From: Promethearchaeota archaeon
GTDB lineage: Archaea; Asgardarchaeota; Lokiarchaeia; Sigyniarchaeales; SOKP01
Direction of reading: 5' to 3'
NCBI GenBank assembly: GCA_016839585.1
Contig: JAEOTZ010000073.1
Coordinates: 1 to 63,713, forward strand
Length of the DNA stretch: 63,713 bases
Shown here: in pieces, positions 28,492 through 63,386 of the stretch
Layout of the letters: each line of letters begins with the position of its first letter
Position numbering within the stretch: position 1 is the stretch's first letter
The notes under the pieces: generated by a model
What the model was told of the DNA's origin: nothing
The model's input: only the letters and a program-made list of their open reading frames with translations
Databases searched by the model: none
Made by a program: the position numbers and the translations under genes

Positions 28492-28641
28492 AGTTAACCT
28501 AAATCAGATTTTATCTCAATTATTTATAATTTTCAAAAAATAATATTTTTCTTGAAATAAAAATAATATTATATAAAAGAATAGAATTGTCTGAATTAAA
28601 AGTATTTTGATAAAAAAAACAATCCAAAGGTGTAAAAATAA

Positions 28642-42324: not shown

Positions 42325-43540
42325 TTACTTTTGTTTTGATAAATACCTAATTTTTACAAGCAAATCTCTTAATTCCATTTTATCATTGTCAGGAGTAATG
42401 TATTTCTTTTTAACGCCCTCTGCGAAGGGAATTTTTTCTATTTTGTTTCCTTGGAGAGAGACCATATAACCAAATTCATTATTTAAAACTAATTTCATTG
42501 CTGCTAAGCCAAATCGCAATCCAAGTATGCGATCGAAACAGCTCGGAGTTCCAGCACGCATGGTATGACCAAGTACTACGCTTCTACATTCAAAATCTAC
42601 TCCATTTTTCTGAAACTCTTGCTTTAAATCATCTCTTAGGTTTAACTCGCTAACAATTATTTGCGACATATTCAATTTTACTAGTAACGGATTACCATAT
42701 GTATCTTTAGGTAACTTATCAATCGTTTCCTTAGATATTGTTTTAAAATCTCTATTTAAAGATTCTATATTTGGATATGCTCCTTCTGATGTAGCAATTA
42801 TATGATACTTATAGCCAGCATTAACTCTCTTTTTCAAAACGTCAATTATGTCTCTCTCTAAATTAAATGGTGTTTCTGGAATTAAGATTATATCTGCTCC
42901 AGCAGATATTCCACTGTACATTGTTAAAAAACCAGCGTCTCTACCCATAACTTCTACAATAAATACTCTCTGATGTGAACGAGCAGTAGTAGTGAGATTA
43001 TCAAGTGTATTAGAGGCTAATTGCACGGCACTCCAAAATCCGAATGTATAATGAGTTCCCTGCAAGTCATTATCAATGGTTTTTGGCACTCCTACTACTT
43101 TTGCATTGGCATATTTATGCATAGTATCAGCTACACCTAGAGTATCGTCTTCAGTTTAAAATAGAAACTATTTTAAAACTCCACCGATAGCTATTAAGGC
43201 ATCTATTCCTAATTCTTCAAATTTTTTAGCCAATTCTTTAGCTTTTTCTTCTTTTGAATTCACTCCTTTGAATGGGTTAGTCCTACTTGTATATAGAATT
43301 GTTCCACCAACAGTATGTAAATCATCATGTTCAGCAATATCAAGTGGAATTGTTTTATTTTCCAAAAATCCTTTCCAGCCTTTTAGAATTCCGATACATT
43401 CTATGCCTGCATCATATGCTTTTAACATTATCCCATAAATTACACTATTTAACCCAGGGCAGTATACGACAGTCAAGGAAAGTCTTGAACATGACTCCGC
43501 CGCCCGTTAAAATTCCTACTTTTTTTATTTGATTACCCAT
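42325..43540 (-). CDS. pfkA: 6-phosphofructokinase (PfkA family, probably PPi-dependent); three exons 43540-43495, 43463-43179, 43148-42325 giving 384 aa
   Basis: Spliced product reads VGILTGGG|DCPGLN...IGG|DDTLG...PKTIDND...EVMGR...LGHTMR; total 1155 nt. Confidence 0.9.
43149..43178 (-). other. Putative BHB intron 2 of pfk (30 nt, contains an in-frame TAG)
   Basis: Outer helix TATCG/CGATA, central GTGG/CTGA (one mismatch), bulges AG|T and AG|A, perfect 10-bp inner hairpin TTTAAAATAG/CTATTTTAAA. Confidence 0.8.
43464..43494 (-). other. Putative BHB intron 1 of pfk (31 nt, frameshifting)
   Basis: Central helix GCGG/TCGT, bulges AG|T and AT|A, inner CA/TG plus TCAAG/CTTGA, outer GGGCG/C(T)GCCC. 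Confidence 0.8.
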
Positions 43541-63284: not shown

Positions 63285-63386
63285 GCACCTGTAGCCTAGT
63301 TGGTAAGACGCCGGCCTTGAGTATTCAAAGCAACCAAGCAAGCCGGTGCGCGTAAGCGCTCGGGGGTTCGAGTCCCTCCAGGTGCG
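63285..63386 (+). tRNA. tRNA-Ser(TGA) with a canonical 37/38 intron (63322-63340, 19 nt)
   Basis: GCACCTG/CAGGTGC; CCGGC-CTTGAG|A-GCCGG; central helix CTTG/CAAG; long variable arm. Confidence 0.93.

Follow-up and report, generated by a model that had tools for sequence, protein, structure and literature searches.

The subject of this work is a phosphofructokinase (PFK) gene that is split by two short inserts in a 63,713-nucleotide stretch of DNA (contig JAEOTZ010000073.1 of assembly GCA_016839585.1; the whole stretch is referred to here as the window). The host genome, designated G000, is a 3.45-Mb Asgard metagenome-assembled genome with a G+C content of 29%, and its close relatives have been deposited mostly as Promethearchaeota. 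The gene lies on the minus strand, with its ATG at position 43540 and its stop codon at 42325, and is the only PFK match in the genome. Exon 1 (43495 to 43540, minus strand, as are all parts of the gene) comprises 15 codons plus 1 nt and ends in GGC GGC GGA G. It is followed by intron 1 (43464 to 43494; 31 nt) and by exon 2 (43179 to 43463; 285 nt), which matches positions 11 to 100 of the Pfam profile PF00365 with an E value of 4e-22. Intron 2 (43149 to 43178; 30 nt) encloses a 10-bp inner hairpin, and exon 3 (42325 to 43148; 824 nt including the stop codon) matches profile positions 103 to 276 with an E value of 2e-55.

When the three exons are joined, they encode a protein of 384 amino acids with the junctions TGGGD|CPGLN and AIGGD|DTLG (here and below, the vertical bar marks the junction), and the PF00365 profile runs on continuously from exon 2 (11 to 100) into exon 3 (103 to 276). 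Intron 1 shifts the reading frame and has to be removed; intron 2 is in frame and contains a TAG and a TAA stop codon. Intronless orthologues align over both junctions. Exon 1 supplies the same N-terminal 16 residues as these orthologues possess, and 32 of 34 residues are identical over junction 1. Both junctions read GGA G|AC and fall within the enzyme's two Gly-Gly-Asp motifs. The position of the second junction is unambiguous (G|AC only), because intron 2 of some relatives ends in GAAC. For gene callers, the consequence of such introns is that the genes containing them will be reported as broken.

The exon contexts are CGGCGGAG|AC at site 1 and CGGTGGAG|AC at site 2. Both conform to CGGYGGAG|AC, with 10 of 10 letters in common, as had been pointed out in an earlier reading of the window made from the letters alone (referred to here as the sequence-only reading). 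Around each junction, the exon letters can be laid out as one strand of the motif called a bulge-helix-bulge (BHB). In the 5' exon half of site 1 (43495 to 43505), GGGCG provides the outer helix, GCGG the central helix, and AG the bulge, while the 3' exon half (43457 to 43463) opens with the bulge nucleotide A and continues with C(T)GCCC, which pairs to GGGCG. The bulges of intron 1 are AG|T and AT|A, and TCGT in its 3' part pairs with the exon letters GCGG. At site 2, the 5' exon half (43179 to 43189) consists of TATCG for the outer helix, GTGG for the central helix, and the bulge AG; the 3' exon half (43143 to 43148) consists of the bulge A and CGATA, which pairs to TATCG, and CTGA in the 3' part of intron 2 lies opposite GTGG. 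For both introns, the junctions defined by homology are exactly the predicted cut sites. The sequence-only reading had further described the ligated exons at each site as a hairpin with a 5-bp stem and a 7-nt loop. This description is confirmed. At site 2, the stem TATCG/CGATA closes the loop GTGGAGA at a minimum free energy (MFE) of -3.9 kcal/mol. At site 1, a 7-nt loop is obtained only with a bulged T, and the thermodynamically preferred form has a stem of 6 bp (GGGCGG:CUGCCC) and a loop of 6 nt at -10.6 kcal/mol.

In a survey of the family across 135 genomes, intron 1 was present in 28 genomes from five genera and intron 2 in 21 genomes from three genera, always at identical junctions. With the BHB imposed on intron 1, 94% of cells are paired, compared to 32 to 48% when the partners are slid. 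Covariation supports this structure: both partners have changed in five of its pairs, and a score as high was reached in 0 of 500 shuffles. The central helix of intron 1 has four pairs, two of them G.U, and 98.9% of its cells are paired. A second type of intron 1 (TTTCATTTAAG...GAACCAYAG) is found at L161, L178, and L186 (genomes G085, G093, and G139, respectively), where the exon carries GGT GGA G in place of GGC GGA G; compared at the sequence level, the two types read as a clean compensatory switch of the central helix, from GCGG:YCGT to GTGG:CCAY. Genus g16 has a third type of intron 1, which ends in CCGCAT. Intron 2 varies less and is less informative. Its 17 distinct sequences all have the same 5-bp outer helix, three wobble letters included, and the inner hairpin is kept. 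As modeled, both PFK motifs are relaxed rather than canonical BHBs.

The same window contains a tRNA gene with a comparable intron. The gene for tRNA-Ser(TGA) (63285 to 63386, plus strand; Rfam RF00005, 44.9 bits), which ARAGORN misses at its default settings and Rfam finds, carries a 19-nt intron between positions 37 and 38 (63322 to 63340) with the layout CCGGC (stem), CTTG, AG|...CAAG, CA|A, GCCGG. The sequence-only reading had likened the PFK junctions, located between loop positions 6 and 7 and bearing the 5' bulge AG|T, to this intron, and the comparison is borne out: like the PFK sites, a canonical 37/38 tRNA intron is flanked by a 5-bp stem, a 4-nt central-helix strand, and two bulge nucleotides on the 5' side and by one bulge nucleotide and the stem on the 3' side, and AG|T is common to tRNA-Ser(TGA) and both PFK introns. 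The geometry is a property of the motif itself. Since one strand of a BHB is made up of the outer helix, four central-helix nucleotides, and two bulge nucleotides before the cut and one after it, ligation produces a loop of 4 + 2 + 1 = 7 nt that is joined between positions 6 and 7. The PFK sites match the tRNA-Ser geometry because any BHB intron with a full outer helix leaves such a hairpin behind. To call them anticodon mimics carries no information beyond the BHB, of which the anticodon arm is the best-known case. The two settings nevertheless differ. The tRNA has its anticodon stem, kept for tRNA function, as the outer helix, whereas in PFK this helix is written in codons by way of synonymous choice. 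The central helix of tRNA-Ser has four Watson-Crick pairs, whereas PFK makes use of G.U pairs and has a G.A mismatch in one of its helices.

Two further loci related to tRNA genes came to light. At 227 to 285 of the window (minus strand), a weak tRNA match (32.4 bits, 59 nt) that is not called by ARAGORN lies at the window edge and may represent a truncated or interrupted tRNA gene. On another contig, a 30-nt insert that is absent from G022, a congener whose whole genome was compared, interrupts an apparent tRNA T-arm (G000:C86:59769-59798, plus strand; GGGGGA|...|TCGAACCCC); it is probably a noncanonical tRNA intron that was picked up through a spurious open reading frame.

The codons GGN GGN GAY fix 6 of the 10 letters shared by the two PFK sites, and the other four letters are synonymous positions, all of which have a role in the motif. 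The letter at -8 pairs with a G at +3 (site 2) or +4 (site 1), and the C at +2 pairs with the G at -7. The letter at -5 has a covarying partner within the intron, and that at -2 is the first letter of the bulge, an A in 8 of the 9 mRNA introns compared from this genome and G022 (see below). Among the 110 other in-frame Gly-Gly-Asp motifs of the genome, the previous codon ends in C in 5%, the first Gly codon ends in Y in 55%, the second ends in A in 54%, and Asp is encoded by GAC in 14%; the product of these values gives a joint frequency of ∼0.002 per Gly-Gly-Asp site. C GGY GGA GAC occurs in 0 of these 110 motifs. A match to all 10 letters was found at none of 2.4 million coding positions, and the uninterrupted 10-mer is present nowhere in the genome.

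Comparison of alleles with and without introns reveals when the synonymous letters are kept. At site 2, C at +2 is present in 18/18 sequences with the intron and in 5/29 without it; the corresponding values are 17/18 versus 4/29 for C at -8 and 18/18 versus 9/29 for Y at -5. The full motif at site 1 is found in 21/24 sequences with the intron and in 0/25 without it, its wobble letters are conserved in the 28 intron-bearing alleles, and all six phylogenetically independent pairs on well-supported branches point in the same direction (p = 0.03). Taken over both sites, the 21 to 28 alleles with an intron, which come from up to five genera, keep the four wobble letters frozen, whereas in alleles without one these letters drift toward A/T. 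The hairpin formed by the ligated exons is accordingly more stable in intron-bearing than in intronless alleles (-9.8 versus -5.0 kcal/mol at site 1 and -3.8 versus -0.8 kcal/mol at site 2). Variation of the wobble letters in the absence of the intron fits selection for splicing and does not show that the sequence predated the intron. PFK provides a clean natural experiment in this respect, as the same codons exist with and without an intron and thereby expose the synonymous letters that the motif has frozen. It also serves as a warning that an "insertion target" read off exon flanks can be the product of splicing selection.

On balance, we think it probable that what looks like a shared "target" is the exonic part of a relaxed BHB splicing motif, which has been built twice on Gly-Gly-Asp, rather than a special target for insertion. 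Under this interpretation, the PFK pre-mRNA would be cut by the archaeal tRNA-splicing endonuclease (EndA), the exons would be rejoined by RtcB, and the four synonymous letters would be held by selection for splicing. Both the splicing of PFK and the role of selection, as opposed to insertion preference, in setting these letters are what we infer from the comparisons above. The genome contains two EndA paralogues (PF01974 matches at C2:77426-77650 and C39:1832-2080, both above the family cutoff) and one RtcB (PF01139 match, E value of 2e-168). The presence of two EndA paralogues fits a heterotetramer, and a heterotetrameric EndA of broad specificity has been described for most Asgard genomes (bioRxiv 10.64898/2026.10.13.758758).

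A number of observations weigh against this interpretation. The MFE fold is a canonical BHB at neither site, and the imposed BHB is ∼5 kcal/mol less stable than the MFE fold. For site 1, the structure favored by RNAalifold has a central helix of 3 bp and a 3' bulge of 4 nt; for site 2, the program predicts no central helix. In intron 2, the central helix is limited to three weak pairs plus a G.A mismatch at -6:n-2 in all 17 distinct sequences, and covariation is weak, with one pair changed on both sides and a score that 3 of 500 shuffles reach. The intron-bearing alleles are related to one another, and the counts given above overstate their independence. In addition, frozen wobble letters can't separate selection after insertion from a preference at the time of insertion. 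Finally, GGAG|AC is common to three of the nine mRNA introns, and together with the bias at -3 and -2 described below this exceeds what composition would give and could reflect a real site preference.

The history of the two introns was followed on an exon-3 tree that covers 51 genomes. At least 12 changes of state are needed for each intron on this tree, with five to six on well-supported branches, and near-identical PFK genes differ in intron content. Genomes G109 and G111 show 0 to 2 mismatches per 40 nt on the 3' side of site 1, compared to 5 to 16 over the promoter, exon 1, and site 1; the entire 5' segment has therefore been exchanged. In G123, a crossover at the intron site joins an exon-1 flank of the intron-bearing type to the exon-2 flank of an intronless allele. 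This allele belongs to the intronless ones that keep 9 of the 10 letters and have GAT in place of GAC; it is a recombinant and not a pre-insertion target. The remaining alleles of this type might have arisen in the same way. The introns are thus old, homologous across genera, and readily lost and regained by recombination between alleles. Turnover of the PFK introns proceeds by allelic recombination and not by rare precise deletion. In genome G002, a second stretch with 88% identity to the end of exon 2 plus intron 2 is located on a different contig (G002:C5:244170-244244); it could be a duplicate or stem from a second strain, the contamination estimate for G002 being 9%.

To place the PFK introns among others, mRNA introns were identified as short inserts relative to intact orthologues in a comparison of G000 with G022, a procedure that is blind to both motif and target. 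Besides the two PFK introns, this yielded five mRNA introns in G000 and two in G022. Three of the former are located on plus strands and are absent from the G022 orthologue: a 30-nt intron at G000:C2:58874 (context TTCATGAA|TG), a 30-nt intron at G000:C33:8086 (TGGATGAA|AC), and a 25-nt intron in a thioredoxin gene at G000:C25:15415 (TAGGCGAA|AG). The remaining two are on minus strands, namely, a 31-nt intron that splits LFGE|H in a GHMP-kinase-like gene on contig C87 (reverse-strand index 61955; TTGGCGAA|CA) and a 30-nt intron within GGGAG|AC in an unrelated gene on contig C59 (reverse-strand index 18445; AGAGGGAG|AC). The two G022 introns are 30 nt long and absent from G000, and their last exon letters are at L090:2055 (= G022:C1:1382055, plus strand) and L097:15884 (= G022:C1:335884, minus strand). 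Their contexts, given from -8 to -1 and then +1 and +2, are ATTCAGAT|GA and AATGCATA|AT. One of these two G022-only BHB introns lies in a gene for an EF-2-like GTPase (SD|DEEQERGITI) and the other in a gene that encodes PMHN|WGKD.

Four central-helix pairs are present at the homology-defined junction in six of these seven introns, and the C87 intron has three. Their outer helices measure 3, 3, 0, 1, 2, 1, and 7 bp, only one being 5 bp or longer, although outer pairing exceeds chance (P(≥3 bp) = 0.066). By manual count on the contexts, the seven introns match the 10-mer at 1 to 7 letters only, and the contexts themselves differ (e.g., CATGAA|TG, GGCGAA|AG, and TCAGAT|GA). CGGYGGAG|AC is therefore not a general target, nor is an anticodon-like stem a general feature. 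A loose consensus can nonetheless be drawn from all nine introns. At least two of the four letters of the central-helix strand are G or C in 9/9, against a G+C content of 31% in coding sequence; -3 is G in 8/9 (coding background, 18%), -2 is A in 8/9 (37%), and -1 is a purine in 8/9. This consensus may come down to the needs of the enzyme and of a stable 4-bp helix at 29% G+C, with Gly, Ala, Arg, and Pro codons supplying the G and C.

These results bear on the broader proposals of the sequence-only reading. Its interpretation is supported in part: the geometry and the nonrandom likeness that it noticed are real, but both would follow from a BHB placed on Gly-Gly-Asp. It had expected mRNA introns to share this target, or at least a bias toward anticodon-arm-like stems; the seven other introns instead sit in different contexts, and one alone has an outer stem of 5 bp or more. 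It had also supposed that introns persist in catalytic motifs where imprecise loss would inactivate the enzyme, which is at odds with introns that are not trapped and that have changed state and recombined between alleles as described above. As for its rule of searching for inserts after GGYGGAG, the rule proved unspecific: the heptamer occurs 342 times, and 193 combinations of site and length survive a loose filter, most of them plain coding sequence. The rule is followed by none of the seven introns that were identified independently, and these introns lend no support to the associated model of gain either.

The proposal from which that rule derives holds that reverse splicing or ligation inserts mini-introns at any place where the mRNA has a ready-made hairpin that resembles an anticodon arm and ends in GGYGGAG|A and that the PFK sites are simply two hits. 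It would account for the presence, in one gene, of two introns of the same phase in the same tripeptide with all 10 letters in common, for the third and unrelated intron on C59 that also lies in GGAG|AC, and for the excess of G at -3 and of A at -2. Alleles that have no intron but match at 9 of the 10 letters do exist (G123 at site 1; G023, G103, G139, and G142 at site 2), but G123, at least, is a recombinant with its crossover at the intron site and does not represent a pre-insertion state. Moreover, seven of the nine mRNA introns lack the target, six of those seven also lack a 5-bp outer stem, and any BHB dictates a 7-nt loop joined between positions 6 and 7. The intron sequences are homologous across genera at each site, which indicates one old origin per site, and neither intron has a second copy in the 3.45-Mb genome, where only chance matches of 10 to 16 nt were found; with no other copy, nothing points to transposition. 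The substrate rule of EndA likewise counts against this proposal, since an intronless hairpin is not a BHB and offers the enzyme nothing to cut. We consider it unlikely as a whole. Much the same low probability attaches, in our estimate, to a looser version in which the BHB mini-introns of Promethearchaeota prefer, at the time of gain, a G/C-rich 4-mer ending in G, followed by A, a purine, and, across the junction, A, and colonize pre-existing mRNA stem-loops, such that the two PFK sites and the C59 site are independent hits.

It is also conceivable that one of the PFK introns was copied from the other and moved to the second Gly-Gly-Asp site by exon likeness, whether through ectopic conversion or transposition within the gene. 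Both sites have the same exon 10-mer and the same 5' bulge AG|T, the lengths are close (31 and 30 nt), and the two introns of G085, when aligned by eye, are ∼50% identical. The similarity of the introns, however, does not exceed that expected of A/T-rich hairpins, and blastn returns no cross-match between the two introns. The 3' pairing segments differ (YCGT versus CTGA, CTAA, or CCTA), and genera g15 and g16, which branch deepest in the gene tree, carry intron 1 alone. We rate a copying event as very improbable. Lower still, to the point of being scarcely credible, is the chance that the likeness is a coincidence of Gly-Gly-Asp codons with no structural meaning, an explanation that the sequence-only reading had named as its own potential undoing. 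The codons do fix six of the letters, but the joint frequency of the wobble letters and the fact that none of the 110 other motifs carries all four are incompatible with similarity due wholly to codons, and conservation of the wobble letters is confined to alleles with the intron.

In the literature searched, tRNA-type introns within archaeal coding sequences are reported for cbf5 only. The intron of the cbf5 pre-mRNA in Crenarchaeota is short, has a relaxed BHB at its borders, and has been lost in some lineages (Watanabe 2002; Yokobori 2009, PMC2738675). A hetero-oligomeric EndA cuts it after the second of the three bulge residues, and it splits the Asp codon of a catalytic motif between letters 1 and 2 (PMC2738675). 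This is the closest known case: the PFK introns are likewise short, located in a coding gene, and bordered by what is modeled as a relaxed BHB, and they split an Asp codon after its first letter. On the other hand, PFK is a different gene in a different phylum (Promethearchaeota, Asgard) with two introns instead of one; the presence of its introns turns over much faster, with at least 12 changes each on the gene tree; and the splicing of its introns is a prediction. The PFK introns are new members of the cbf5-type mRNA introns. They place two such introns in a glycolytic gene, where as many as five genera of the prokaryotes most closely related to eukaryotes have kept them, and add to the evidence that the tRNA-splicing machinery also processes mRNAs in the Asgard lineage.

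Loops of 7 nt are cut in HAC1/XBP1, whose non-spliceosomal mRNA intron is removed by IRE1 and whose exons are rejoined by a tRNA ligase (RtcB). The sites recognized by IRE1 are two distinct stem-loops that follow a sequence consensus, and the cut falls after position 3 of the loop. PFK differs in presenting a single BHB with a predicted EndA cut, and its 7-nt loop exists only after ligation. With regard to the origin of BHB introns, Fujishima and colleagues reportedly described, in 2010, the transposition of introns among the tRNA genes of Thermoproteales. Repeated gains of tRNA introns, which sit preferentially where a BHB can form, are described for Asgard archaea in a preprint that gives no general route of arrival (bioRxiv 10.64898/2026.10.13.758758). 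The term "mRNA" is absent from its main text, where protein-coding genes are named only as neighbors of tRNA loci (bioRxiv 10.64898/2026.10.13.758758). Whereas the studies of tRNA introns in Thermoproteales and Asgard archaea concern BHB introns at new sites, the PFK introns are without a second genome copy and bear no sign of transposition.

Several other searches for introns in G000 were carried out. The genome was scanned at several stringencies for pairs of open frames that a BHB-like structure would join, and at none of these did real frames rise above wrong-frame decoys, the genome having 29% G+C; structure combined with reading-frame logic thus fails to find these introns. Junction peptides from 5,515 structural candidates, comprising true and decoy frames, were compared with G022 and gave equal results for real and decoy frames (179 versus 181 contiguous and 25 versus 25 split). 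A weak match to intron 2, located at G000:C13:11571-11597, is simply coding sequence of the opposite strand. The search for interrupted paralogues within the genome recovered the thioredoxin intron alone. Within the window, an 18-nt stretch with a stop codon at 28495 to 28520 (minus strand), upstream of the start of an SRP54-like gene, appears as an "insertion" relative to G022 and has no BHB; it is most likely just a 5' gene boundary.

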